DNA from: Synechococcus sp. A15-24
GTDB taxonomy: Bacteria > Cyanobacteriota > Cyanobacteriia > PCC-6307 > Cyanobiaceae
Direction: 5' to 3'
DNA: 32,000 bases
Assembly (NCBI RefSeq): GCF_014280195.1
Contig: NZ_CP047960.1
Location: 1,830,001 to 1,862,000, forward strand
Shown piece by piece: positions 1 to 21,708 of the stretch (its first letter is position 1; every line of letters starts with the position of its first letter). A model generated the notes under the pieces. That model made no database searches, was not told the origin of the DNA, and worked only from the letters and a program-made list of their open reading frames with translations. Position numbers and translations under genes: made by a program.

Positions 1-1992
1 CTGAGCATCTCGATGCAGTGGAGCCAGGTAGCCCCACCACTGTTGGAATCGCTGGAAATGGACCGGCTGCGCTTCCCGGAGATCTATGAGCGCCGGGCCG
101 CCCGCTATCGGCTGGAGCCCTACCGGCTCAAGCTCAGCTACATCCTTGAACGGCTGGAGCTCACGCTGCAGCGCAACCATCAGATGTCAGAGGCTGGCTG
201 GCAGTCGCCGCCGGAACCTGCCACCACAGCGCCAACCGATGGGATCCCGGGCCATGAGGCGCTGCACTACACCGACATCAATCAGTTCCGCAGTGATCTG
301 GAACTGATCCGCAACAGCCTTGTCAGCACCGAGCTGAGCTGCGAACAGCTCGACACCCTGCTCAACCAGGTCCACATCTTCGGGTTCTCTCTAGCGAGCC
401 TGGACATCCGGCAGGAGAGCACCCGCCACAGCGACGCCATCGATGAGCTGACCACCAACCTGCAGCTTCCCAAGGCCTACGGCGCCATGGAGGAATCTGA
501 GCGGGTGGCCTGGCTGCTGGAGGAACTGCAGACCCGCCGGCCTCTGATCCCCGCGGCGGTCGAATGGTCCGAAGCCACCGCCCAGACCTTTGCGGTGTTC
601 CAGATGCTGCATCGCCTGCAGCAGGAATTCGGTCAGCGGATCTGCCACTCATATGTGATCTCCATGAGTCACACCGCCTCCGACCTGCTGGAGGTGATGC
701 TGCTGGCGAAGGAGATCGGCCTGGCGGACCCGCAGGCCGGCAAGGCATCGCTGCTGGTGGTGCCTTTGTTCGAAACGGTGGAAGACCTGCAGCGGGCCCC
801 CGAGGTCATGGACGGCCTGTTCCAGAAGCCGATTTACCGGAATCTGCTCCCCAGTGTTGGCGTCCAGCGACAGCCCCTGCAGGAGCTGATGCTCGGGTAC
901 TCCGACAGCAACAAAGACTCGGGCTTCCTCTCCAGCAACTGGGAGATTCACCAGGCGCAGATCGCCCTGCAAACCCTGGCCAGTAGCCATGGCGTGGCCC
1001 TGCGGCTGTTCCACGGCCGGGGTGGATCGGTGAGCCGCGGCGGTGGCCCGGCCTACCAGGCCATACTTGCTCAGCCCAGCGGCACACTGCAGGGCCGGAT
1101 CAAGATCACCGAACAGGGTGAAGTGCTGGCCTCCAAGTACGGCCTGCCGGAACTTGCCCTCTACAACCTGGAAACCGTCACGACGGCGGTGGTGCAGAAC
1201 AGCTTGGTGACCAATCAGCTGGATGCCACCCCGAGCTGGAACCAGTTGATGAGCCGCGTGGCCAAGCGCTCCCGCGAGCATTACCGGGCCCTGGTCCACG
1301 ACAACCCCGATCTGGTGGCGTTTTTCCAGCAGGTCACCCCGATCGAGGAGATCAGCAAGCTGCAGATCTCCAGCCGTCCGGCCCGCCGCAAGACCGGCGC
1401 CCGGGATCTCTCCAGTCTGCGGGCAATCCCCTGGGTGTTCGGCTGGACCCAAAGCCGGTTCCTGCTGCCGAGCTGGTTCGGTGTGGGCACCGCCCTGGCG
1501 GAGGAGGTCAACGACGACCCTGAGCAACTGGACCTGCTGCGGCGACTGCATCAGCGCTGGCCGTTTTTCCGGATGCTGATCTCCAAGGTGGAGATGACGC
1601 TGTCCAAGGTCGATCTCGACCTGGCGCACCACTACATGAGCAGCCTCGGCAACCCGGAGCAGCGCGATGCCTTTGAAGACATCTTCAAGGTGATCGCCGA
1701 TGAATACGGCCGCACCCTGAAGCTGGTACTTGAAATCACCGGTCAGAGCCGCCTGCTTGGGGCCGATCAGAACCTGCAGCTGTCGGTGGATCTGCGCAAC
1801 CGCACCATTGTTCCCCTGGGCTTCCTGCAGGTGGCCCTGCTGCGGCGACTGCGGGATCAGAACCGCCAGCCCCCCATGAGCGAATCCCCTGGAACGCCGG
1901 AGGATCGCCGCACCTACAGCCGCAGTGAGCTGCTGCGGGGCGCATTGCTCACCCTTAATGGCATCGCCGCCGGCATGCGCAACACCGGCTGA
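1..1992 (+). CDS. ppc: phosphoenolpyruvate carboxylase, C-terminal ~660 aa (5' end outside window)
   Basis: Frame is open to the window edge. PEPC signatures [13 protein letters not shown] and [14 protein letters not shown] are present, with the C-terminal [10 protein letters not shown]. Confidence 0.93.
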
Positions 1993-1996
1993 TCCC

Positions 1997-2470
1997 TTGC
2001 TTTCGTTCCTTCAGCAGCCCAGTGTTCCTCAACTCCCCGAGGGATACCGACTCGAAACCGGTGAGGTGCCATCTCCGGCAGCCATCAACCGACTGCTGGC
2101 GTCCTGCCAGGAATCCACCCACCCGGAAGAGCTCTGGCCCAAGGCGATGGAGCGCAGCCTGTGGCAAATCAGCATTCTTGAGGAGTCCACGGGAGAGCTG
2201 GTGGGATTCGTGCGGGCCACCAGCGACATGGCCCTCAACGCCAATCTCTGGAATCTGTCCGCCCTTCCGGGACCGGATCAGGGCCGGCTGCTGACGGTTC
2301 TGATGCATCGAGCCCTGCACATCCTGCGGCGAGACCTGCCTGGCTGCAGCCTGTCCGTCTCCGCGCCGGCGATGTCGCTCGAAGCGCTGAAGGGTCAGGG
2401 GTTTGTGATCGACCCCAGTGGCATCCGGGCCATGGGGTTGAGGCTGAAATCAACCTCTGGAACTGACTGA
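1997..2470 (+). CDS. small conserved protein, possibly GNAT-type acetyltransferase fold; start uncertain
   Basis: Codon-biased ORF in host-like GC. The track start at 1925 overlaps ppc by 68 nt, whereas an in-frame TTG at 1997 lies just after the ppc stop. The GNAT call rests only on weak motif resemblance (ELVGFVRA...QGRLLTVLMHRAL). Confidence 0.4.
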   Translation: MLSFLQQPSVPQLPEGYRLETGEVPSPAAINRLLASCQESTHPEELWPKAMERSLWQISILEESTGELVGFVRATSDMALNANLWNLSALPGPDQGRLLTVLMHRALHILRRDLPGCSLSVSAPAMSLEALKGQGFVIDPSGIRAMGLRLKSTSGTD

Positions 2471-2473
2471 ACA

Positions 2474-2547
2474 CGAGCATGGAGGGATTCGAACCCCCGA
2501 CCCTCAGAACCGGAATCTGATGCTCTATCCAACTGAGCTACATGCCC
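2474..2547 (-). tRNA. tRNA-Arg (anticodon CCG)
   Basis: The reverse complement folds by hand into a cloverleaf: acceptor GGGCATG/CATGCTC, D arm GCTC/GAGC, anticodon stem TCAGA/TCTGA with loop TTCCGGT, and T arm GGGGG-TTCGAAT-CCCTC. Confidence 0.9.
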
Positions 2548-2632
2548 ACTGGCCTAAGTGAGGTAACAGCAGGAGACCGCCCGACAGGCCGGCCCGTTGT
2601 CAGTACCTTACCCAAACGCCGCTCTGTGACCC

Positions 2633-3751
2633 ATCCGGCTCCAAACGCTCCAGCTGCAGGGGTTTCGGAACCACAGTCAGCTGTCGCTGGAGCTGACCCA
2701 GCCGCGGTTGCTGGTGATCGGCCCCAACGGCATCGGCAAATCAAATCTGCTGGAGGCGGTGGAGCTGCTGGGCAGCCTGCGCTCGCATCGCTGCAGCCAG
2801 GACCGTGACCTGATCCAGTGGGAGGCACCGCGGGCCCTGCTGCGGGCCGGCCTGGATGATGGCGATCAGCTGGAGCTTGAGCTGCGTCGCCAAGGGGGGC
2901 GCCAGGCCCGTCGCAACGGCAAGACTCTGGATCGCCAGCTGGATCTGATCGGTCCTCTGCGCTGCATCGGGTTCAGCGCCCTCGATCTGGAGCTGGTGCG
3001 GGGGGAACCGGCCCTGCGGCGGCAGTGGCTCGACCGGGTGGTGCTGCAGCTGGAGCCCGTCTACGCCGATCTGCTCGGCCGCTACAACCGCCTGCTGCGC
3101 CAACGCAGCCAGCTCTGGCGTCGTGGTGCGCAGACCAGCCCGAACCAGCGGGACGCTTTGCTCGATGCCTTCGATGTGCAGATGGCCCTGATGAGCACGC
3201 GCATTCATCGCCGCCGCCAACGGGCGTTGCGGCGCCTGGAACCGATCGCGCGCCGTTGGCAGTCGCACCTCAGTGCCGGGAGCGAGGAGCTGGAATTGCA
3301 CTACCTACCGGGCAGTCGACTCGATGCCGAGGAAGCGGAGGAGCCATGGCGACTGGCCATCGAAGAGCAGCTGCGGCGGCAACGGCCGGAGGAGGAACGG
3401 TTGGGCAGCTGCCGGGTGGGGCCCCATCGCGATGAAGTGTCCCTGCAACTGGGGGGAACACCGGCGCGGCGGTTCGGATCATCGGGCCAGCAACGCTCGC
3501 TGGTGCTGGGGCTGAAACTGGCGGAACTGGAACTGGTGACCCAGCTGTTCGGCGAGGCGCCGCTGCTGCTGCTGGACGACGTACTGGCGGAACTCGATCC
3601 CACCCGTCAGCACCTGCTGCTGGAGGCGGTGGGGCAGGAGCATCAATGCCTGGTGAGCGCTACCCACCTGAGCGGCTTTGAGGGCGGCTGGCGAGAGCAT
3701 TCCCAGATTCTCAATCCTGGAGACCTGAGTCCAGGGGTGGAGATCGGATAA
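2633..3751 (+). CDS. recF: DNA replication/repair protein RecF (start codon unresolved)
   Basis: Walker [14 protein letters not shown], signature SSGQQRSL and Walker [13 protein letters not shown]. The conserved N-terminus [12 protein letters not shown] lies upstream of the first canonical start offered by the track (TTG 2708). There is an in-frame TGA at 2627-2629. Confidence 0.85.
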
Positions 3752-3781
3752 TCTGCTTTGCTGTTTTTCTCTGATCGCCTG

Positions 3782-4237
3782 ATGGAGCAGACCCTGTCTG
3801 ACCTGCATCCCAACCCGGGATGGGGGGACACCCAGTTGCAAGCCACCGACATGGTGGGCAAACACTGCATTCTCGAGCTCTACGACTGCGATCCTGCCCG
3901 GCTCGACGACGAAGCATTCCTGAGAACCACCATCACGACAGCAGCGAAACGTGCTGGTGCCACCCTTCTCAATCTGATCACCCACAGCTTCGAGCCCCAG
4001 GGCGTCACGGGACTGGCCCTGCTGGCGGAATCGCACATCTCCATCCACACCTGGCCCGAGAGCGGTTATGCCGCCGTGGATGTGTTCACCTGCGGTGACC
4101 ACACGATGCCGGAACAGGCCTGCGCCGTTCTGCGGGACGAACTGCGGGCCCAGCGCCATGCCCTGAGGAGTTTTCGAAGGGAAACACCGGCGGCTGTGGC
4201 CGACACCGTGCGCGAACCGATCCAGCTGCCTGGCTGA
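3782..4237 (+). CDS. speH: S-adenosylmethionine decarboxylase proenzyme (small class 1 type)
   Basis: [33 protein letters not shown] includes the E-S self-cleavage site. ATG 3782 is in frame; the track start at 3758 is TTG. Confidence 0.85.
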
Positions 4238-5104
4238 TCAGAGGCCGCGGTTGAGCTTGCCGCTCACCAGGCCCTCCAGATCCAGGCTCACAGAAGTGAA
4301 CCCCAGGTCCAGCAGGCTGCTGACCAGGGGTTCTTTTGCGTTCAGGGCCAGCAGATCATCCAGCCGATCACGGGGCACCTCGATGCGCGCGGAGAGGCCC
4401 TGGCTGCGCACCCGCACCCTGGGGAACCCTCGGGCCAGCAACCAGGCTTCCGCCTGCCCGACCCGCTTCAGCCGCTCGGCGCTGATGCTCTCGCCGTAGG
4501 GGAAGCGGGAGGCCAGGCAGGGCTGGGCCGGCTTGTCCCACCAGGGAAAACCGAGGGCTGATGACAACTGGCGAATGGCGGCCTTGTCGATGGCCAATTC
4601 CGCCAGGGGGGAGCGCACCCCAGATTGCCGGGCCGCCTCAATGCCGGGGCGGTGGTCACCGAGATCATCCAGATTCACCCCATCCACCACCAAGGCACCA
4701 CCGGCGGCGGCAGCGATCGGCTGCAGGTGGTGATGCAGTTCCCGCTTGCAGGCAAAACAGCGGTCGGAAGGATTGCTGCTGTAGTCGGGATCGTTGAGCT
4801 CACGGGTTGGACACTCCTGATGGCGGATGCCGATCCACTGCGCCTGCGCCCGCGCCTCCTCCAGCAGATGGGGAGCCAGGGCCTGCGAGACCCCCGTCAC
4901 CGCGACAGCGGCATCACCCTTCTGTTCATGGGCGATTGCGGCCACCAGGGTGCTGTCCACACCACCGGAGTAAGCCACGCACAGGGCATCGTGTGAAGCC
5001 AGCCAGGTGCGCAACTGCTGGAGCAGATCGGCCTGCCGCGACGGCAAAGGTTCCTGCAGCCGGAACATCAGCGGAACAACCCGGTCGATCTCGGTAGGCT
5101 CCAA
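4238..5104 (-). CDS. PP-loop superfamily ATP-utilising enzyme (LarE/TIGR00268-like sulfur transferase family)
   Basis: PP-loop motif VAYSGGVDSTLVA followed by conserved cysteines (CFACK). Confidence 0.65.
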   Translation of the reverse strand: MEPTEIDRVVPLMFRLQEPLPSRQADLLQQLRTWLASHDALCVAYSGGVDSTLVAAIAHEQKGDAAVAVTGVSQALAPHLLEEARAQAQWIGIRHQECPTRELNDPDYSSNPSDRCFACKRELHHHLQPIAAAAGGALVVDGVNLDDLGDHRPGIEAARQSGVRSPLAELAIDKAAIRQLSSALGFPWWDKPAQPCLASRFPYGESISAERLKRVGQAEAWLLARGFPRVRVRSQGLSARIEVPRDRLDDLLALNAKEPLVSSLLDLGFTSVSLDLEGLVSGKLNRGL

Positions 5105-5121
5105 CTGTAAGAGCCGGGACC

Positions 5122-6270
5122 ATGCCCCGAAGCATCGGCATCGTGACGGCGGCGGACAGCCGCGAGCGCAGCCATGGTCAGCTGCACATCTATGACGGTG
5201 AGGGCAAGGGCAAGAGCCAGGCCGCCCTGGGAGTGGTGCTGCGCACCATCGGCCTCGGCATCTGTGAACAACGACGCACTCGGGTGTTGCTGCTGCGCTT
5301 CCTCAAGGGTCCAGGCCGCGCCTACGACGAAGACGCCGCCATCGAAGCGCTGCAGCAGGGTTTCCCGCATCTGATCGACCACCTGCGCACGGGCCGTGCC
5401 GATCACTTCACCGCTGAAGAAGCCACCCGCTTCGATCGGGAGGAAGCCCAGCGGGGCTGGGTGATCGCCAAAGGAGCCATCGCCAGCGCGCTCTATTCGG
5501 TGGTGGTGCTGGATGAACTGAACCCGGTGCTGGATCTGGGGCTGCTGGACGTGGAGGACGTTGTCAACACACTCAGGCAGCGGCCGGAGGGCATGGAAAT
5601 CATCGTGACCGGCCGCGCGGCACCTGCACCCTTGGTGCGGGTGGCGGACCTGCACTCCGAGATGCGGGCGCACCGGCGGCCAGGGCTGGAGGAGGATCGG
5701 GTGATCCCGCTCAACATGAGCAGCGGCATCGAGATCTACACCGGCGAAGGCAAGGGCAAATCCACCAGCGCCCTCGGCAAGGCGCTGCAGGCGATTGGAC
5801 GGGGCATCAGCCAGGACAAGAGCCACCGGGTGCTGATCCTGCAGTGGCTAAAAGGGGGCAGCGGCTACACCGAGGACGCCGCCATCGCCGCGCTGCGGGA
5901 CAGCTATCCCCATCTGGTGGATCACCTTCGCTCCGGCCGTGATGCCATCGTCTGGCGCGGCCAGCAGGAACCGATCGATTACGTGGAAGCGGAACGGGCC
6001 TGGGAGATCGCCCGCGCTGCCATCTCAAGCGGGCTCTACAAAACCGTGATCCTCGATGAACTCAACCCAACGGTGGATCTGGAGCTGCTGCCGGAGGAGC
6101 CGATCGTGCAGACGCTGCTGCGCAAACCGACGGAAACCGAAGTGATCATCACCGGCCGCTGCAAAAACCAGCCCGCTTATTTCGATCTGGCCAGCATCCA
6201 CTCCGAGATGGTGTGCCACAAGCACTACGCCGAGCAAGGCGTGGACCTCAAGCGAGGAGTGGATTATTGA
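5122..6270 (+). CDS. cobO: cob(I)yrinic acid a,c-diamide adenosyltransferase-like protein with two tandem CobA/CobO/BtuR domains
   Basis: Two parallel halves each carry the P-loop (YDGEGKGKSQAALG and YTGEGKGKSTSALG) and the VLDELN motif. The C-terminal HKHYAEQGVDLKRGVDY tail is typical of CobA-type enzymes. Confidence 0.75.
   Translation: MPRSIGIVTAADSRERSHGQLHIYDGEGKGKSQAALGVVLRTIGLGICEQRRTRVLLLRFLKGPGRAYDEDAAIEALQQGFPHLIDHLRTGRADHFTAEEATRFDREEAQRGWVIAKGAIASALYSVVVLDELNPVLDLGLLDVEDVVNTLRQRPEGMEIIVTGRAAPAPLVRVADLHSEMRAHRRPGLEEDRVIPLNMSSGIEIYTGEGKGKSTSALGKALQAIGRGISQDKSHRVLILQWLKGGSGYTEDAAIAALRDSYPHLVDHLRSGRDAIVWRGQQEPIDYVEAERAWEIARAAISSGLYKTVILDELNPTVDLELLPEEPIVQTLLRKPTETEVIITGRCKNQPAYFDLASIHSEMVCHKHYAEQGVDLKRGVDY
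6225..6270 (+). repeat. attL-like direct repeat, the functional last 15 codons of cobO
   Basis: The 46-mer CTACGCCGAGCAAGGCGTGGACCTCAAGCGAGGAGTGGATTATTGA matches 11923-11968 at 39/46 positions in direct orientation. Confidence 0.85.
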
Positions 6271-6281
6271 GGCCTCGTAAG

Positions 6282-6302
6282 AGTTTGTACGAAGTTTGTA
6301 TA
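6282..6302 (+). promoter_or_regulatory. left-end tandem motif AGTTTGTACGAAGTTTGTATA (candidate integrase arm-type site)
   Basis: 19/21 identical to 11854-11874 in the same orientation. Further AAGTTTG(T/G) copies occur at 6461-6468 and 6776-6783. Confidence 0.5.
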
Positions 6303-6741
6303 CCGGAATCACTTACACAAATCCGCGAAACAGATAGCACCCGATTGATTCTCAATAGGAGAGAGTTTATTGAGAAAAGGTCTTCGGTTCGGCTTCAAAT
6401 GAACGACCGCTTATCCGCGATAGTCACCACACCACAGCCACATCAACCGATCTAGGGAAAAGTTTGTAGGGACGAACTCGATCGGTTTGAACTAAGGCCT
6501 GGAAGGCACTGCAGCAAGCCGTAAATGTTTCAAGTGGTAAGCCCTGCCTGGAGCGCTAGCTGCTGCTGCAAGGCCGTCTAGCCGTGCTGCTGAGCCTTGG
6601 ACGAAGGGGCTATGGGGGTCAATCAGCACCTTCGTATATACGTAATGACCTCTCAGAAATTTGTCTTGTTTGTTTGAGACTCCTAAGAAAAATGCATTGT
6701 CTTGTTCAATCCTACAGAACTACTGACTTATTCAAAAATCC

Positions 6742-6770
6742 TTGACCAATTAGCACTAGACAACTAATAT
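6742..6770 (+). promoter_or_regulatory. sigma70-like promoter candidate for the LRR-RTX gene
   Basis: TTGACC (6742-6747), a 17-nt spacer, then TAATAT (6765-6770), about 23 nt upstream of ATG 6793. Confidence 0.4.
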
Positions 6771-6792
6771 TAGAGAAGTTTGGTTTAATCCA

Positions 6793-8127
6793 ATGACATT
6801 TAGTTTTACTTTTGACAGTGCCACTGGTCACGTAACTATTGCCGAAGGGTCATTCAAATTACCTGCTAGGGCTTTTAAGGGCCGCAAGGAAATTAAAAGC
6901 GTAACTATTCCAGGCTCTGTCCTCTCAATTGGAACGGAAGCGTTTAGAGGCGGCAGTCTGAATAAAATAGTTATTCCTGAGCGGGTAACTACTATTGACC
7001 TTAAAGGATTTTATGAAAATAAGCTGAATGAGGCGATTATTGGTGAGTCTGTCAACTCGATTGGCGACTACGCGTTTTATGGAAACCAACTTAAAAGCAT
7101 TGTCATTCCCAATAGTGTTACTTCGATAGGTCAATGGACGTTTGCTCGAAATCAGCTATCTGAGGCTAACATTGGTAATTCCGTCACTTCAATTGGCGGC
7201 GGGGCGTTTTATGATAACCAGTTGACTGAGGTCGTAATTGGTGACTCTGTAACCTCGATTGGCAGAAGGGCTTTCCAGCAAAACGATTTGACCAATATTA
7301 TAATACCTGATTCTGTCACTTCAATTCACAGCTGGGCGTTCAAGAACAACAATCTAACTGAGGTTTTAATACCTGATTCTGTTACTTCAATTGGCTCCGG
7401 GGCGTTCATTGGCAACAATCTAACTGAGGTTTTAATACCTGATTCTGTCACTTCAATTAGCAGCGGGGCGTTCAAGAGAAACAAGCTGACTAAGGTTAAA
7501 TTGCCATCAATATTCAAAGACAATCCTCCACATAAAGCATTTGATCTTGGAGTGGAATTTAGCTATTCCGGTGCTGTTGAGCCGACACCTGAGCCAACTC
7601 CAGCTCCTGCACCTGAGCCAACACCAGCTCCTGCACCTGAGCCAACTCCTGAACCTAACGACAATGACTACATTCTACCTACTACAAGAAATTCAATTGC
7701 TGGAACAAACAAGAACAACAAGCTCAACGGTACAAAGTCAAATGATTTTATCCTTGGACTTAGTGGTAGAGACAAAATAAACGGCAAGAATGGTGATGAC
7801 ATCCTTGAAGGTGGCGATAGTAATGACATCCTCAAAGGATCAAAAGGTGATGACTATCTCTTGGGTTCCAAAGGCGATGATGTTTTAATTGGTGGGCGAG
7901 GTGCGGATGTCTTTAAGACATCCAAAGGTGTTGATATAGTTAATGATTTCAGTCTTATACAAGGAGATCGTATTGGTCTATATCAAGACACTATTTATGA
8001 CGTCATTGATGATGTTGATGGAACTCTGATAAGAGTTACTAACAGTATTCGGATGCTTCTAGTAGATCAGGACTATGACGAGTTCTTGGCAGCAGGAAAC
8101 GACGCCATCGCCAGGATTGCTGTCTGA
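6793..8127 (+). CDS. leucine-rich-repeat (BspA-like 22-23 aa units) protein with PEPTPAPA linker and RTX-type Ca-binding nonapeptide repeats
   Basis: About 9 units of the type IPDSVTSIGSGAFxxNxLTEV, a linker EPTPEPTPAPAPEPTPAPAPEPTPEP, and five consecutive nonapeptides GKNGDDILE GGDSNDILK GSKGDDYLL GSKGDDVLI GGRGADVFK. Confidence 0.8.
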   Translation: MTFSFTFDSATGHVTIAEGSFKLPARAFKGRKEIKSVTIPGSVLSIGTEAFRGGSLNKIVIPERVTTIDLKGFYENKLNEAIIGESVNSIGDYAFYGNQLKSIVIPNSVTSIGQWTFARNQLSEANIGNSVTSIGGGAFYDNQLTEVVIGDSVTSIGRRAFQQNDLTNIIIPDSVTSIHSWAFKNNNLTEVLIPDSVTSIGSGAFIGNNLTEVLIPDSVTSISSGAFKRNKLTKVKLPSIFKDNPPHKAFDLGVEFSYSGAVEPTPEPTPAPAPEPTPAPAPEPTPEPNDNDYILPTTRNSIAGTNKNNKLNGTKSNDFILGLSGRDKINGKNGDDILEGGDSNDILKGSKGDDYLLGSKGDDVLIGGRGADVFKTSKGVDIVNDFSLIQGDRIGLYQDTIYDVIDDVDGTLIRVTNSIRMLLVDQDYDEFLAAGNDAIARIAV

Positions 8128-8205
8128 TTACGGACAGAATATTAACCCCGTCGCCAGGCGAGTTGAAGTGAATCAGATCATTAGAACCAGAAGTAAATAG
8201 CTAGG

Positions 8206-8439
8206 TCAAATATCAAGCATTGGTCGCTGCTTTGCCTTAAATTTTCTAGTCGCATAGTTAAAGGTATTGTCGATGATGTCTTTTAGTGCTGGGGACATCG
8301 GTGGTTCGTAAGGTCGTTCATATCTAGGCCTTGGAGAAATACCTTTACTGAAATCTTCACATCTTCCTAGTGAATTGTCAGCCCACTTTTTGAATTCCTC
8401 AACCTCTTTTTTGTAGGAGTCAGACATTGGGTTATTCAT
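8206..8439 (-). CDS. hypothetical 77-aa protein (island)
   Basis: ORF in low-GC DNA. Its ATG overlaps the stop of the upstream ORF by 4 nt (ATGA-type coupling). Confidence 0.45.
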   Translation of the reverse strand: MNNPMSDSYKKEVEEFKKWADNSLGRCEDFSKGISPRPRYERPYEPPMSPALKDIIDNTFNYATRKFKAKQRPMLDI

Positions 8440-8648
8440 TTCTTTGAATCCTTCGTATTTTTGTCGATGAGGTCTAGCAATGAAGGTAGACCAGGTTGTT
8501 GTTGTGGCTTGTTCTGTTCCTTGAGACCCAATTGCTTGAGTCTGACTTGTTCACGTAGTTGATCTAGGTATGTCTGCATTTTCAGATTGTTATTTTTTGG
8601 TAGCTTGTAGTTGTGGTTGAACACCTTTTCGGTCTTCCTCGTACTCAT
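8436..8648 (-). CDS. hypothetical ~70-aa lysine/glutamine-rich protein (island)
   Basis: Starts at internal ATG 8648 (MSTRKTEKVF...). The track ORF upstream of this ATG reads as an out-of-frame shadow of the neighbouring ORF. Confidence 0.4.
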   Translation of the reverse strand: MSTRKTEKVFNHNYKLPKNNNLKMQTYLDQLREQVRLKQLGLKEQNKPQQQPGLPSLLDLIDKNTKDSKK

Positions 8649-8952
8649 CGTGCCAAACCCAGGCCATCCAACCCATACGCCTGGCCTCTTCCATCCGGTA
8701 CCTAAGACCAGTTCGTAATCGTGGCATCGGTCCATAAATATATGGATTCTTATCAAGACCAAACTCCAGCCACCAACCTTGGTTATTTGGAAGGTTCTGA
8801 GGTGGGCTACATACCTTGCAGGATCGATCCACTGCCGTCTTGGCTGTCTTGGTGTCTATTCCCGCGTTGACGTACGTTGTGGCTCCACAGGACTGGCACT
8901 CAATGACTGTCCTTTTTCTGTTGTCTACATAGATTTCTTTAGCTGATTTCAT
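8590..8952 (-). CDS. hypothetical ~120-aa protein with CxxC...CxxC zinc-ribbon-like motif and Trp-rich C-terminus (island)
   Basis: CQSCG-(22 aa)-CKVC. ATG 8952 (MKSAKEIY...) is preferred over the track start at 9009. Confidence 0.5.
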   Translation of the reverse strand: MKSAKEIYVDNRKRTVIECQSCGATTYVNAGIDTKTAKTAVDRSCKVCSPPQNLPNNQGWWLEFGLDKNPYIYGPMPRLRTGLRYRMEEARRMGWMAWVWHDEYEEDRKGVQPQLQATKK

Positions 8953-9010
8953 TATTTGATTGGGTATTAGTTCACCTACATCACGAAGGACGTAGGAGAC
9001 TAATACCAAT

Positions 9011-9056
9011 ACGAACTATTGGAATCGAACCAATACGAGGTCACCAGACATTCGTT
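9011..9056 (-). other. tRNA-like fragment (T-arm plus acceptor-like helix), not a complete tRNA
   Basis: The minus strand reads ACGAA-N16-ATTGG-TTCGATT-CCAAT-AG-TTCGT. The T-loop consensus GGTTCGATTCC is present, but no D or anticodon arm can be drawn. Confidence 0.4.
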
Positions 9057-9069
9057 GAGCTAAACATAC

Positions 9070-9092
9070 CCATCCAAAAGGATGGCTTTTTT
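9070..9092 (+). terminator. intrinsic-terminator-like hairpin with T tract (plus strand)
   Basis: CCATCC-AAAA-GGATGG followed by C and TTTTTT. There is no plus-strand CDS within about 940 nt upstream. Confidence 0.45.
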
Positions 9093-9169
9093 ATGACATG
9101 TGATTTAGATGAACCAGTGCACCCAATCTGGTTGCTAACGGCCAATCACCTCCGTTAGCTAAGACAACC

Positions 9170-9192
9170 AACAGGTAATGCTCCTGTTTTTT
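9170..9192 (+). terminator. second terminator-like hairpin with T tract (plus strand)
   Basis: AACAGG-TAATGCT-CCTGTT running into a T6 tract. Confidence 0.35.
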
Positions 9193-9543
9193 GTTCGCTT
9201 GAAGGTTGTTGTATCCATACAGCATGAATAGTAATATCAAGATGTCCCTTCAATGGACATTGTGATATTCAGATTCAAGCTCGGCGAAAAGATCAAGTAA
9301 ATCTATTTATTTAACTTGTTGTTTGTTTTGTTCATCCAGTAAACAAAGAGTTGATAAGTAGAAACAAAAAGCGTTTCCAAAATCAACCAGGAGTTAGTAC
9401 AAGTTAAAGACAATGTGTCTTGTGGTTAACTTGTCTTTAGGCGGTACTTACAGAATGTCCGTCTCGCTGCGCTCGACCTGGACATTAATAAATGGGAAGG
9501 ATGTCTTCCCCAAAGGTACAAAAGCAACAGTCCCCCCTTCTCT

Positions 9544-9568
9544 TCCCCCTGTATAAGGCAGGGACCGC
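9544..9568 (+). repeat. solitary iteron-like copy downstream of the wHTH gene
   Basis: TCCCCCTGTATAAGGCAGGGACCGC matches the consensus of the 10089-10200 array. Confidence 0.6.
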
Positions 9569-9606
9569 TCTAAACCCAGGTGGGGACTGGTGTCTTAGGG
9601 TTACCT

Positions 9607-10014
9607 CTAACTTGCCTGCTTAGCCCTATCAGAAGCAGTGGCTGTGAAAAATGACATGGCATGTCTTACTGCATCAATCATGTCAGGGTGAACCACACGA
9701 TAAATCCGATGTTTACTACCTTTAGATGACGGCATTAATCCTTCAGCCTGAATAAAACCGTTGTCAAGGAGCAAATCAATGGCATTAATTACCTTTGCTT
9801 TCCCCATATGAAGTGTTTCAGCAATCGCCTTGTGTGACCAATTTGTTGTGCCACCACAGTCTCTACGATCTTTCCATTTCCTGTACATTCTTTTGTCATA
9901 TCGTAGATCCTGATACGCAGATTGATACATCAGGCTATACACAGCTACTGCTGCATAGCCCAATTTTGCTACTTCGGTAATTGGAGGCACGGTGTCTTTA
10001 AGAATAACTGTCAT
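9607..10014 (-). CDS. winged-helix/HTH DNA-binding protein (candidate iteron-binding initiator or regulator)
   Basis: HTH-like segment NWSHKAIAETLHMGKAKVINAIDLLLDNGFIQ followed by a wing-like SSKGSKHRIYRV. The gene is flanked by iteron-like repeats. Confidence 0.6.
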   Translation of the reverse strand: MTVILKDTVPPITEVAKLGYAAVAVYSLMYQSAYQDLRYDKRMYRKWKDRRDCGGTTNWSHKAIAETLHMGKAKVINAIDLLLDNGFIQAEGLMPSSKGSKHRIYRVVHPDMIDAVRHAMSFFTATASDRAKQAS

Positions 10015-10088
10015 TTAGATAATACTTACTTGTGTTCTATTTGGAACGCTTTAGTTGACTAGGTTGTGATCAGGCTCGGAGCGCTAGA

Positions 10089-10200
10089 TCCCCCTATATA
10101 AGTGTCGGATCGCTACTTCCCCCTGTATAAGTTAGGGATTGCCAGATCCCCCTGTATACGGTAGGGATCGATCGTTCTCTCTGTATCAGAGCCGTTTTGC
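10089..10200 (+). repeat. four tandem iteron-like repeats with an exact 29-bp period
   Basis: Copies start at 10089, 10118, 10147 and 10176: TCCCCCTATATAAGTGTCGGATCGC, TCCCCCTGTATAAGTTAGGGATTGC, TCCCCCTGTATACGGTAGGGATCGA, and the degenerate TCTCTCTGTATCAGAGCCG. Confidence 0.8.
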
Positions 10201-10436
10201 TGGATGCGGTAGCACTTTTAGAAGTTTCTATTGATCACCATGAATCTGTATTCGTCTTTCCTTACCTAGGAGCGAGTGGTTTGGTGGCTATTTAATTGTC
10301 CGTTGTGGGTATCCGGAGAGCCGCTGAGAGATGCTTTGGTGATTGTGAATAAGGGATTCATCGTTCGTGCCATTTGAGGCAGGTTGTAGGCGATCCTGAG
10401 TGGAGCAAATTATCAACTAGAAGTCCGTTAGTCATG

Positions 10437-11816
10437 TCATACATATTGCATAACTTCTTGTCCTCTTCCTCCAGACTTTCCAAACTCAAATTCAGTAAGC
10501 TCCTTAGCCTTCACAGCCATATCAAGACGTGCGTAATACCTCTCGCAAACAGCAACGGTATGACCAGCAAGCTTGGCAACGTCATAGATGCCTTTACCTT
10601 GAAGGATAAGGTTGCATATATAAGTGCTCCGCAATGAATACAAGGTGTAGTTGCGATCACTGAAGACATAAGGCTTCAGCGGCTCGTCCATCAACTTCAA
10701 CATATCTGTCCAAGACTGACCCATATACTCTCGTGAGTAAGGCTTCATCTCATGGTAAGGGTTGCCAAAAATGTATGTCTGGTCAGTTACTTCGACACCA
10801 GGACAATGCTTCGCAATGTACTCCTGCTGATACTGCTTCCAATCTTGTAGCTGCTTGTGGACACCATTAGCTGGCACAGTCCGCTGTCTACCTGTCTTGG
10901 ACTTCTTCACGTAGATCACGCTGATCCAGCGGTCAACACGCTTGCCTTCTGACTTCGAGTCCCGACCGACGTTCACTGAGTGGACATCACACCAGCGCAG
11001 TTGATTCAGCTCAACCATGGGTCGCAGCCCACAGTTACGAGCGATGATCACCCAGTGATAGAAGAGGCGATTTGAATAGTGACCTCTGTGATTGGGATTC
11101 TTCTCTGCTCTTTCACAGTTGCGCTTCAATGCAGCCAGAATTTTTCTCCAGTTAGATTCGTCCAGGGGAGGATTAGCATCGAGGTCACTGTCTGTGATTT
11201 TGATTTTTGGAATTAACTTCTTGTAGTCAATTTCCTTGCGCAGCAAGTTCTTGACACGCATAAAATTATCAACAAAGTCTTTGATAACTACTAGCTCTAG
11301 CTTTCTGGTTGACTTAGCTGCAGCCTTTCGCCAAACGGGATAGTCATGAAAGGTCTCCGTTTCTATGTGCTGTGAATGTGAGCATCCCTTCTCCCGCAAG
11401 TAGGGGAGCATGTGCATCCGAAGCGTTCTCTGCTTGTTCTCGTAGGTGTTGTGAGCAAGCAGACCAGCCTCAACCTTTGCGTGCTCACTCGCCAAGAACT
11501 CGTCAACACATCGTTTGATCTCCCAGGTCCTCAGACGAGCACGTACTGGCGGCACAGAAACAGCAGGAGCACCTGCATGCCTGACGACCTCTGAACCCTT
11601 TGGAAAAATCGACTCGGTTTTCCTAAGAGCCGTGTAGGCATCGATGCAGCCATCCAGTGCCTCCTCGATCGTTTCGGCGCCTTCGATCAAACGGGACCTG
11701 TACCTCTTGGTCCCCGGGATCAGCTCGCGGAAATAGAACTTCTGCGGCTCGCCCAAATAAGAGAAAACCACGCCCTTGCCGTTCAGGGCTTTGGCCTTCT
11801 CAGCGATCTTCGGCAC
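10437..11816 (-). CDS. tyrosine recombinase / phage-type integrase (large, ~460-475 aa); start GTG 11816 or TTG 11864
   Basis: Box I-like IIARNCGLRPMVELNQLRWCDV and box II-like LYSLRSTYICNLI...LAGHTVAVCERYYARL, with Arg, His and the terminal Tyr. Confidence 0.85.
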   Translation of the reverse strand: MPKIAEKAKALNGKGVVFSYLGEPQKFYFRELIPGTKRYRSRLIEGAETIEEALDGCIDAYTALRKTESIFPKGSEVVRHAGAPAVSVPPVRARLRTWEIKRCVDEFLASEHAKVEAGLLAHNTYENKQRTLRMHMLPYLREKGCSHSQHIETETFHDYPVWRKAAAKSTRKLELVVIKDFVDNFMRVKNLLRKEIDYKKLIPKIKITDSDLDANPPLDESNWRKILAALKRNCERAEKNPNHRGHYSNRLFYHWVIIARNCGLRPMVELNQLRWCDVHSVNVGRDSKSEGKRVDRWISVIYVKKSKTGRQRTVPANGVHKQLQDWKQYQQEYIAKHCPGVEVTDQTYIFGNPYHEMKPYSREYMGQSWTDMLKLMDEPLKPYVFSDRNYTLYSLRSTYICNLILQGKGIYDVAKLAGHTVAVCERYYARLDMAVKAKELTEFEFGKSGGRGQEVMQYV

Positions 11817-11853
11817 GACCAAGCTCCTGACGAACTGCCAGAAGACTAGCCAA

Positions 11854-11874
11854 AGTTTGTACAAAGTTTGAATA
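11854..11874 (+). promoter_or_regulatory. right-end tandem motif AGTTTGTACAAAGTTTGAATA (candidate arm-type site) overlapping the integrase 5' end
   Basis: 19/21 identical to 6282-6302. It lies 49 nt inside the right att-like repeat and over or just upstream of the integrase start. Confidence 0.5.
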
Positions 11875-11922
11875 ACGGGCCTAGATCAGGCCAAAAACCC
11901 TGCTGCAACAATGCTTTACCGC

Positions 11923-11968
11923 CTACGCCGAGCAGGGCGTGGACCTCAAACGGGGGGTTGACTATTAA
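11923..11968 (+). repeat. attR-like direct repeat, the displaced copy of the last cobO codons (YAEQGVDLKRGVDY*)
   Basis: CTACGCCGAGCAGGGCGTGGACCTCAAACGGGGGGTTGACTATTAA. Homology to cobO begins at the Tyr codon, and the copy is followed 9 nt later by the convergent moeB stop. Confidence 0.85.
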
Positions 11969-11977
11969 TTCAATGGG

Positions 11978-13111
11978 TCAGTAGCGCGGCACGGCCTGAT
12001 CCACCTGCACGGACCAGGCATCGATGCCCCCATCAACGTTGGTGGCCGTGATGCCCTGCTGAGCCAGCAGCTCCACGGCCTGGGCCGAACGGCCGCCGAG
12101 TTTGCAGTGCACGTAAAGACGCCTGGACTCCGCCAACCCGCGGATGCGGTCGATTGCCTCGCCGCTTTTGATCGAGGCCAGGGGGATCAGCACGGCCCCA
12201 GGAATCACAGCCACCTCGGCTTCAGCTGGATTGCGCACATCCAGCAGCACCAGATCATCGGCCGAGCCATCCAGCAGCGACTTGAGCTCGATCACGCTGA
12301 TGCTGTCCATGGAAGATGCCGTCGGTCGGCAGAACTGCTGGTAGTCAATCAAGCCATCGATCGCCGGCCGCTCCGGGTCACGCCGCAGCGTCAGCTCGCG
12401 AAACCGCATCGTGAGGGCATCCACCACCAACAGGCGGCCATCCAGGCTGCGGCCGATGCCCGTGATCAACTTGATCACCTCCGTCGCCTGGATCAAGCCG
12501 ATCAGGCCCGGCATCACCCCCATCACCCCCGCTTCCGCACAGGACGGCACCTGCTCCATCGGCGGTGGCTCCGGCAGCAGATCGCGGTAGTTGGGGCTCT
12601 CCGGCGTGCGGTTGAACACCGATGCCTGGCCGTCAAAACGCTGCACCGATCCGTAGATCAAGGGCTTTCCCTGCAACACGCAGGCGTCATTCACCAGGTA
12701 CCGCGTCGGGAAATTGTCCGAGCCATCACACACCAGGTCGTAACCGGCAATCATCTCCAGGGCGTTCTCCCGATCCAGCATCTGCTCATGCAGCTCCACC
12801 TGACAGTGGGGATTGAGCTCCTGCAGCCTGTGCGCGGCGGAGCGCCCCTTCGATTGGCCGAGCCAGTCCATGCCATGGATCACCTGGCGTTGCAGGTTGG
12901 ATAACTCCACAACATCGCCATCGACGATGCCGATCCGGCCGACACCGGCGGCAGCCAAATACAGCAACAACGGAGAACCCAGCCCACCGGCCCCCACACA
13001 GAGCACGGACGCCGCCTTGAGCCGCTCCTGTCCGGCCTGGCCCACCTCCGGCAACATCAGGTGGCGGGCATAACGGTTCCGCTCCTCCCTACTCAATTCC
13101 TCAATCGACAT
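11978..13111 (-). CDS. moeB: molybdopterin-synthase adenylyltransferase (ThiF/MoeB E1-like) with C-terminal rhodanese domain
   Basis: Nucleotide-binding VLCVGAGGLGSPLLLYLAAAGVG, a ThiF-family core, and a rhodanese active-site loop HCKLGGRS. Confidence 0.85.
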   Translation of the reverse strand: MSIEELSREERNRYARHLMLPEVGQAGQERLKAASVLCVGAGGLGSPLLLYLAAAGVGRIGIVDGDVVELSNLQRQVIHGMDWLGQSKGRSAAHRLQELNPHCQVELHEQMLDRENALEMIAGYDLVCDGSDNFPTRYLVNDACVLQGKPLIYGSVQRFDGQASVFNRTPESPNYRDLLPEPPPMEQVPSCAEAGVMGVMPGLIGLIQATEVIKLITGIGRSLDGRLLVVDALTMRFRELTLRRDPERPAIDGLIDYQQFCRPTASSMDSISVIELKSLLDGSADDLVLLDVRNPAEAEVAVIPGAVLIPLASIKSGEAIDRIRGLAESRRLYVHCKLGGRSAQAVELLAQQGITATNVDGGIDAWSVQVDQAVPRY

Positions 13112-19143: not shown

Positions 19144-19214
19144 CACCCCTTCCAGACAGGGACACACAGAAGCTGAAGAGAACCTTTAGCCTGGGTCTTG
19201 CTTAGGACTCAGGC

Positions 19215-19571
19215 ATGTTCCCCCGTCTCGCCGAGCACTACCGCTCTGTGGTTCAGGATCTCGTGATGAGCCTGCAAGCACTGGCCTCCGGCCTGAAAGC
19301 CTGCGGCATGACCGCCAGTTGCTACTCCTGCGGTGATGGCGAGGATGCCCATGGCGCGTCGTTCGTCTCCGACCTCGGCGATGGCCACGTGGTGCGTTTC
19401 CTCGTGTCCGATTTCGGTATCAGCTGGGTGGAGTCCCGCAACGGCCACGAGCTGGTGAAGCTGGAAGGCGCCGAAGCCATCCAGGAACTGCAGCGAATGA
19501 CCGAAATGCTGCACCAAAGCCGGGGTGCGGACAGCACAGCAAGCCAACTGTCCGCTCCATCCCCGGCCTGA
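19215..19571 (+). CDS. conserved hypothetical protein (118 aa)
   Basis: ATG-initiated ORF filling the gap before recA. No motif recognised. Confidence 0.45.
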   Translation: MFPRLAEHYRSVVQDLVMSLQALASGLKACGMTASCYSCGDGEDAHGASFVSDLGDGHVVRFLVSDFGISWVESRNGHELVKLEGAEAIQELQRMTEMLHQSRGADSTASQLSAPSPA

Positions 19572-21536: not shown

Positions 21537-21546
21537 GACGGAAAAA

Positions 21547-21618
21547 CTGGGCCGCTAGGATTCGAACCTAGGAATGGCGAGACCAAAACCCGCTGCCTTA
21601 CCGCTTGGCGACGGCCCA
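21547..21618 (-). tRNA. tRNA-Gln (anticodon TTG)
   Basis: Hand-folded: acceptor TGGGCCG/CGGCCCA, anticodon stem GCGGG/CTCGC with loop TTTTGGT, and T arm CTAGG-TTCGAAT-CCTAG. Confidence 0.88.
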
Positions 21619-21708
21619 ATGATCCGGGCGACTCCGTAATCGAACGCGCTCCGGTTAGGAAATAGTTACCCACATCAGGCTCACCTTCGTCAATCCACCG
21701 TTGCCTGG

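Follow-up and report, generated by a model that had tools for sequence, protein, structure and literature searches.

A low-GC island at the 3′ end of cobO in marine Synechococcus sp. A15-24, very probably a small integrative element with a synonymous surrogate gene tail

Introduction

Tyrosine integrases can direct mobile elements to the 3′ ends of conserved metabolic genes, as with phage 21 and the e14 element in icd of Escherichia coli. The attachment site of such an element (attP) carries a diverged, coding-equivalent version of the gene end, and the gene stays functional while its native end is displaced. Here, we analyze a 32,000-nt stretch of the Synechococcus sp. A15-24 genome, called the window in its full length, in which a low-GC island at positions 6271-11922 is very probably a small integrative element seated in the 3′ end of cobO. 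Like phage 21 and e14, it shows gene-restoring integration at the end of a protein gene. It differs from them in host phylum, in cobO as target and in integrase family; moreover, its surrogate tail comprises only about 10-11 codons, is entirely synonymous and belongs to a 5.65-kb non-phage island.

Integrative and conjugative elements or integrative and mobilisable elements at 3′ ends of protein genes, such as ICESt1 and ICESt3 in fda, bring conjugation or mobilisation modules with them. The 3′-terminal coding target and a short frame-preserving direct repeat are common to these elements and to the cobO island, whereas the island has no conjugation or mobilisation module. Integrase-bearing T7-like marine podophages, among them the cyanophage P-SSP7 and pelagiphages of the HTVC019P type, use tRNA-derived attachment sites. 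Marine picocyanobacteria are thought to be poor in classical mobile elements, and their genomic islands are explained mainly by tRNA-targeting tycheposons.

The described tycheposons use seven tRNA/tmRNA genes as sites and carry primase, helicase or polymerase hallmark genes (bioRxiv 10.1101/2020.12.28.424599). They are similar to the cobO island in their small size, in the combination of integrase, replication and exchangeable cargo, in the patchy distribution among close relatives, in the repeated occupation of a single site, where remnants persist, and in the marine picocyanobacterial host. In contrast, the target of the island is the 3′ end of a protein gene, its candidate replication functions are limited to iterons and a winged helix-turn-helix (wHTH) protein, and its integrase is not detectably close to the abundant Prochlorococcus ones. 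No description of cobO as an attachment site was found in the literature, where the P-SS2 paper names cobO only as a phage-borne gene. The gene-restoring trick is well known, but the cobO target, the integrase family and the host group are apparently new to it.

Results

The cobO 3′ end is duplicated around a low-GC island

An earlier note on this DNA had described an abrupt low-GC block after the cobO stop codon. Measured by segment, the GC content is 0.647 at positions 1-6224, 0.447 at 6271-11922 and 0.644 at 11969-32000, which bears out this description: the block between cobO and the convergent moeB comprises 5,652 bp with 44.7% GC in flanks of about 64.5% GC. The features at its two ends and the integrase gene are as follows.

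5122..6270, plus strand: cobO, target gene, two-domain ATP:corrinoid adenosyltransferase, 382 aa (Pfam PF02572, CobA_CobO_BtuR x2, 8e-88)
6225..6270, plus strand: attL core, host left part and probably element-derived tail ...CAA GGC GTG GAC CTC AAG CGA GGA GTG GAT TAT TGA
6283..6301, plus strand: P′ arm repeat GTTTGTACGAAGTTTGTAT with tandem AGTTTGNA half-sites, putative integrase arm-binding site
10437..11816, minus strand: int, tyrosine recombinase (integrase), 459 aa from GTG 11816 with AGGAG upstream; maximal open reading frame (ORF) to TTG 11864
11855..11873, plus strand: P arm repeat GTTTGTACAAAGTTTGAAT, between int start and core
11923..11968, plus strand: attR core, displaced native cobO tail, untranslated, 9 nt from the moeB stop, matching the empty-site attB
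11978..13111, minus strand: MoeB-like ThiF/rhodanese adenylyltransferase gene, convergent, right host flank (Pfam ThiF 6e-79, Rhodanese 3e-13)

The last 46 nt of cobO (6225-6270) recur in direct orientation at 11923-11968 with 39/46 identity, and either copy translates to YAEQGVDLKRGVDY-stop, as the earlier note had found. By chance, about 8e-8 such repeat pairs are expected in the window. The note's further claim that all seven differences fall on third codon positions holds for six of them; in the seventh, TGA/TAA, the stop codons differ in their second base. Only the position has to be corrected, since this difference is silent as well. The encoded CobO is identical to WP_186497684.1 (marine Synechococcus sp. 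A15-24) and matches NCBIfam PRK07413 with 778 bits in an alignment that reaches the last residue (382/382). Judged from the codons used, the last 10-11 or so of cobO would now come from the element: the right part of attL resembles the attP of the contigs L008 and L038 introduced below (..AAG CGT GGA GTG GAT TAT TGA/TAG), unlike the empty-site attB.

A second repeat, GTTTGTACRAAGTTTGWAT, lies just inside each attachment-site copy (6283-6301 and 11855-11873), with two matches against none expected by chance. The pair looks like arm-type sites, and equivalent paired repeats surround the core in L002, L004, L037, L038 and L039, with the int-side repeat only in L035 (L-numbers, L001 to L041, denote contigs or loci compared with the window). 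The position of the right copy 9 nt from the convergent moeB stop, also given in the earlier note, is correct. The MoeB-like protein itself scores 547 bits against NCBIfam PRK07411, under the cut-off of 633. No tRNA gene occurs at or near the junctions; the nearest are a tRNA-Arg at 2473-2548 and a tRNA-Gln at 21546-21619.

Empty sites identify the native gene end

Metagenome contigs were scanned for empty sites with a pattern consisting of the cobO tail, at most 30 nt, and the moeB stop. Such sites, which the earlier note had proposed to look for, were found: at 22 of 22 loci cobO is directly followed by convergent moeB, with no integrase. Two of the loci, L027 and L021, come from close relatives (cobO 96.7% and 96.5% identical in nucleotides, CobO 99.5-99.7% in amino acids), and their junction reads CTACGCCGA(G/A)CAGGGCGTGGACCTCAAACGGGGGGTTGACTATTAATTCAATGGGTCAGTAGCG. 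Positions 11923-12000 of the window, that is attR with its flank, are 100% identical to L027 and 98.7% to L021. Because the attB of these two loci matches attR, the right copy is the displaced native cobO end, and the copy attached to cobO carries foreign codons.

The site is occupied in different ways among close relatives

Even contigs that encode an identical CobO differ in the state of this site: in L004 another variant of the element follows the stop codon, L002 has a remnant, and L003 is apparently empty. The 0.9-kb remnant of L002 (2964-3900) lies between att-like copies and has a ParA-like gene as its sole content. The att-like copy on its right encodes a different tail, QGVDLKHGMKY-stop, and is devoid of the left 12 nt of the core; it is not a canonical attR. 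The L003 contig, from a public assembly, is cut short at 1784-1828, where Nextera transposase adapter sequence (CTGTCTCTTATACACATCT...) directly follows the cobO stop.

In L039, L040 and L041, the cobO site holds a sibling element with int, wHTH and backbone genes 88-94% identical to those of the window. Its cargo is another one: a 748-aa S8-peptidase-RTX gene takes the place of the leucine-rich-repeat (LRR)-RTX gene found here, and a 247-aa gene is added. L039 and L041 are identical in attL and different in their right flanks (TTCAATGGG vs CCCAATCGG), therefore one sibling element is present in two host backgrounds. All these hosts are within about 4% cobO divergence. The displaced tail in attR of L039 and L041 reads GVELKRGVDY, an Asp-to-Glu change that reflects either a polymorphism of the lineage or a loosened constraint on a copy that is not translated. 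In L039, cobO and moeB are called in fragments, which suggests frameshift errors in this contig.

Unintegrated relatives carry the cobO tail in their attP

Relatives of the element were also found in unintegrated form, on uniformly low-GC contigs, with integrases 67-70% (L008/L009, L038, L037) or 92% (L035) identical to that of the window. Their attP precedes the int start by 60-110 nt, is read on the opposite strand and encodes (H)YAEQGVDLKRGVDY-stop. In L008/L009, L038 and L037 it has paired AGTT-type repeats on both sides, whereas only the int-side repeat is visible in L035, which ends 10 nt past the core and is probably an unintegrated attP form too. All eight distinct versions of the element-borne tail (8/8) encode QGVDLKRGVDY-stop with synonymous differences only, and the stop codon marks the exact end of their homology to cobO. 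The attP of L037 has an in-frame TAG in the left half of the core, directly left of the tail, which fits the untranslated status of that part after integration. L037 (TARA, ERR599266) is a plasmid-like version of the int-attP cassette, in which ParA, attP, int and a serine resolvase (PF00239) stand side by side (318-3370); a ParA related to that of L002 adjoins its attP.

The identity blocks between attL and attR comprise repeat positions 1-12 and 14-27 in the window and positions 1-15 only in L039. From this comparison, the crossover most likely falls within the left 15 nt or so, at 6225-6239. A crossover in the 14-nt identical block GGCGTGGACCTCAA was considered and dropped, as the L039 block covers only the left 15 nt and the left end fits both elements. 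Scans of viral contigs returned nothing for the core, and for the arm repeat one chance match in a T4-like contig (L006).

The integrase belongs to a small, divergent family

The tyrosine recombinase reported just inside the right copy is present, the coordinates 10437..11864 being those of the ORF; translation likely starts at GTG 11816, and the closest homologues (90-92% identical) are 459 aa long as well. The protein matches phrog_1 (5e-17) and Pfam PF00589 with 22.6 bits, below the gathering score. Its catalytic set R281, K323, Y409xxR412, H435 and Y444 is invariant or nearly so in 23 homologues. An exhaustive phmmer search gave 350 clusters (50% identity) out of 1.84 billion at E<=1e-3; the family is small and divergent. 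The only named Prochlorococcus matches are strains MIT 1201 and MIT 1318. With so few related clusters and only these two named strains, the abundant tRNA-targeting tycheposon integrases are therefore not detectably close relatives.

In searches of viral sequences, the protein has no detectable similarity (tblastn) to any of the 50,697 deposited phage genomes in INPHARED, and an IMG/VR search with the integrase profile gave only one match, at 25%. Among genome contigs, the integrase search detected one remnant only, in L001 (Synechococcus sp. AG-683-B21, 3152-4646), where a C-terminal part of the family directly follows a different, intact 443-aa integrase. Beyond the remnant lie iterons and homologues of the window's wHTH and 139-aa genes, as if insertions had taken place in tandem or one after the other at a different site.

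The Prochlorococcus relatives illustrate the range of targets. In MIT 1201 (L007), the 3′ end of rpsD is the site of a 9.7-kb low-GC island with a perfect 19-nt repeat at its bounds; the tail is present twice (YYSRKV-stop), and the native terminator stays with the displaced copy. In MIT 1318 (L010), a 10.4-kb island with a 20-nt repeat (bounds 8775-8797 and 19189-19221) lies inside a ComM-like Mg-chelatase gene, which is truncated (...EFPRKV-stop) and not restored. The L010 core ...CGCAAAGTT resembles the rpsD tail core ...AGAAAGGTT of MIT 1201, a likeness that suggests a secondary-site insertion, with truncation of the gene, in MIT 1318. Both islands have in common with the window the integrase family (45-48% identity), low GC, the absence of a tRNA, TATACAGGG-type arrays and the placement of int at the end farther from the body of the target gene. 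They are unlike it in their size of about 10 kb, in other cargo and in having no detectable homologue of the 135-aa wHTH protein.

Cargo and backbone genes

The remaining features of the island are listed below in the order of their position.

6793..8127, plus strand: cargo gene, 444-aa BspA-type leucine-rich-repeat protein with Pro/Thr-rich linker and C-terminal RTX Ca-binding repeats
8206..8439, minus strand: 77-aa ORF in the backbone conserved with L039
8590..9009, minus strand: conserved backbone gene, 139-aa ORF, homology from residue 20, CxxC...CxxC zinc-ribbon-like
9010..9606, minus strand: about 600 nt of non-coding backbone without a credible ORF
9607..10014, minus strand: 135-aa winged-helix DNA-binding protein, putative iteron-binding replication initiator or regulator
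10078..10189, minus strand: iteron array, four copies of a unit of about 29 nt with CTTATACAGGGGGA (minus-strand reading); fifth copy at 9544-9570

The 444-aa cargo protein matches Pfam LRR_5 (1.7e-57) and HemolysinCabind (1e-14) and, in part, the NCBIfam adhesin_HupY-like model, and is likely a secreted surface or adhesin-like protein by its domain content. Its linker is encoded by three tandem 24-nt units (7586-7657) that give a PEPTPAPA-type Pro/Thr stretch between the LRR and RTX parts. Backbone positions 8252-9211 are 89.7% identical to L039. The 77-aa ORF has no family match in Pfam, PHROGs, NCBIfam or PADLOC, and the 139-aa ORF none in Pfam, PHROGs or NCBIfam; the latter is 75% identical in amino acids to L008/L009 (302-628) and 51% to L001 (6822-7121). 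The non-coding region at 9010-9606 contains the iteron copy 9544-9570, an AT-rich hairpin region at 9393-9451 and a patch at 9111-9210 with 78% identity to L001. It may be an origin, a regulatory region or a non-coding RNA; an Rfam search of the island gave nothing credible.

The replication-like module proposed in the earlier note is reduced to the iteron array and the 135-aa protein. The AlphaFold2 (AF2) model of this protein is a winged helix with a pLDDT of 76, and its Foldseek matches in the PDB are generic wHTH regulators, DnaD-N and staphylococcal RepA-N at E values of about 1e-3 to 2e-2. A weak match to phrog_391 ('replication initiation O-like') was also obtained, and 306 homologous clusters stem mostly from short marine contigs. 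The protein is 71% identical to its homologue in L001, which adjoins similar iterons. Because of the adjoining iterons, we take it for a putative replication initiator. Arrays of the TATACAGGG(G) motif are common to four islands (window; L007, 15737-16037; L010, 17126-17566; L001, 5281-5520); of the other three, only L001 has a homologue of the 135-aa protein, a search next to the iteron-like arrays of L007 and L010 having found none. Pfam, PHROGs, NCBIfam and PADLOC revealed no defence, packaging, conjugation, primase, helicase or polymerase genes in the island.

Discussion

Proposed mechanism of gene-restoring integration

The locus and its relatives present every sequence-level feature of gene-restoring integration: a recombinase with its catalytic set, repeats at the gene's 3′ end, the attB, and a coding-equivalent attP. 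The integrase would act as a tyrosine recombinase in the style of lambda Int, with arm-type repeats on either side of the core, and recombine attP with an attB of about 46 nt that spans the last 15 cobO codons. Strand exchange is predicted around CTACGCCGAGCARGG, close to the left border of the homology. The downstream tail (~Gln-Gly-Val-Asp-Leu-Lys-Arg-Gly-Val-Asp-Tyr-stop) would then be read from element DNA, and the native tail would be moved 5.7 kb away, beside moeB. The attP encodes the same peptide by synonymous codons and its homology ends at the stop codon; therefore CobO is unchanged. Upon excision, the repaired attB is expected to restore the cobO tail as ...AAACGGGGGGTTGACTATTAATTCAATGGG, and the circle would have the junction ...11874-core-6282....

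The backbone, composed of int, the iteron array, the winged-helix protein, the non-coding region and the zinc-ribbon-like gene, probably serves to maintain or replicate the circle after excision. Beside attL, a single slot would hold exchangeable cargo, in this case the secreted-type LRR-RTX protein. The element is real and, as far as sequence comparison can tell, probably mobile still today. That it is active at present, where exactly the strands are cleaved, that the wHTH protein and the iterons serve replication, and by what vehicle the element passes from cell to cell are all matters of inference.

Weighing of alternative explanations

The central proposal of the earlier note, a site-specific element with a surrogate CobO tail, is upheld by the empty sites, the attP forms of relatives, the alternative occupants and the occurrence in two host backgrounds, and we hold it with high confidence. 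Several points weigh against it. Neither a circular junction nor an excision product of the window element was seen; the attP forms come from relatives with integrases 67-92% identical, and the closest one, L035, stops 10 nt past the core. The position of the crossover is deduced from the identity blocks of two elements only. No excisionase was recognised in the element, and the replication assignment is weak, with a generic wHTH fold (Foldseek E ~1e-3) and no helicase or primase. Finally, the host flanks and the element backbone of L039 diverge from the window to a similar degree (~94%), so that vertical inheritance of an old insertion in part of the clade, later lost elsewhere, is possible for that pair. 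A separate explanation is an immobile, ancient and fixed island, its flanking repeat being the product of a gene end that was duplicated locally. This would agree with the fact that no excision product was observed in this analysis. Nevertheless, it deserves hardly any credence, given that the empty sites of close relatives match attR exactly, that different inserts sit at the same point, that the same element is found in two host flanks and that free attP forms exist.

Other explanations accept mobility and differ in the kind of element. A tycheposon in the strict sense of Hackl et al., a member of the Prochlorococcus/marine tyrosine-recombinase cargo family, would account for the small size, the integration and putative replication modules, the cargo exchange (LRR-RTX here, S8-RTX in L039), the absence of capsid or conjugation genes and the marine picocyanobacterial host, and a preprint (10.1101/2020.12.28.424599) reports non-tRNA-associated recombinases within the same integrase clade. 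The target is nonetheless a protein gene and not a tRNA/tmRNA site, hallmark genes for primase, helicase or polymerase are absent, and the 350 related clusters include MIT 1201 and MIT 1318 as the only named Prochlorococcus matches. We regard this assignment as unlikely; of the likeness to tycheposons suggested in the earlier note, the way of working remains, whereas the tRNA target and the replication hallmarks are missing. Contig L008 (also L009) bears on a possible phage origin. On this uniformly low-GC contig, attP (2461-2510), the integrase and a T7-type RNA polymerase (5478-7880) occur together, and it could be a temperate podophage or an RNA polymerase-bearing plasmid-like element. As in P-SSP7 and HTVC019P-type podophages, int lies beside attP and upstream of the polymerase, which is found 1.5 kb downstream of int (phrog_414, 1e-144) and has Synechococcus podophages as best named relatives (28%). 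Together with a 68% identical integrase, a 75% identical homologue of the 139-aa protein and a cobO-mimicking attP, this would speak for the island being the decayed remnant of a temperate T7-like cyanophage which lysogenised at cobO and lost its phage genes by internal deletion. Yet Pfam and PHROGs show no phage structural, DNA-polymerase or RNA-polymerase genes in 6271-11922, the island has its own iteron/wHTH module, common to L001 and L039-41 and absent from L008, and its siblings are equally small with only the cargo exchanged. The phage nature of L008 is itself unproven, because its genes lie on both strands and neither IMG/VR nor INPHARED holds relatives of its int or RNA polymerase (an IMG/VR scan with the latter gave nothing useful). 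Decay from such a phage is thus very improbable.

A phage satellite similar to the phage-inducible chromosomal islands (PICI), which shares the int-attP module with an L008-type helper phage and is mobilised by it, would explain why int, the attP design and one backbone gene are common to the polymerase-bearing contig; small size, a putative origin of its own and the abundance of homologues on short marine contigs fit as well. However, PHROGs, Pfam and PADLOC detected neither terS, capsid, packaging or interference genes nor a recognisable regulator pair, and no helper phage was identified, which makes a satellite of this kind quite unlikely. With the int-attP cassette shared with L008 in mind, we consider it a speculative notion of low probability that the islands are satellites or derivatives of an uncharacterised temperate podophage lineage that lysogenises marine Synechococcus at cobO. 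If this were true, lysogeny in marine picocyanobacteria could be tested with a defined attB/attP pair in a host that is in culture (A15-24).

Implications for picocyanobacterial genomic islands

The integrative element proposed here would represent a second route for the formation of picocyanobacterial islands, in which a divergent integrase family enters the ends of conserved protein genes such as cobO and rpsD without damage. Such elements may shuttle secreted RTX-type surface or enzyme proteins between strains, and the cobO site is polymorphic among close relatives, being empty, occupied by variants or remnant-bearing. The likely host is a cultured strain, and therefore excision, integration and transfer are directly testable. 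A further possible use of the attB of about 46 bp, together with the compact int-attP cassette, is as a tool for site-specific integration in Synechococcus. As to the two tRNA genes in the host flanks, tRNA-Arg(CCG) and tRNA-Gln(TTG), the composition profile shows no low-GC block beside either.

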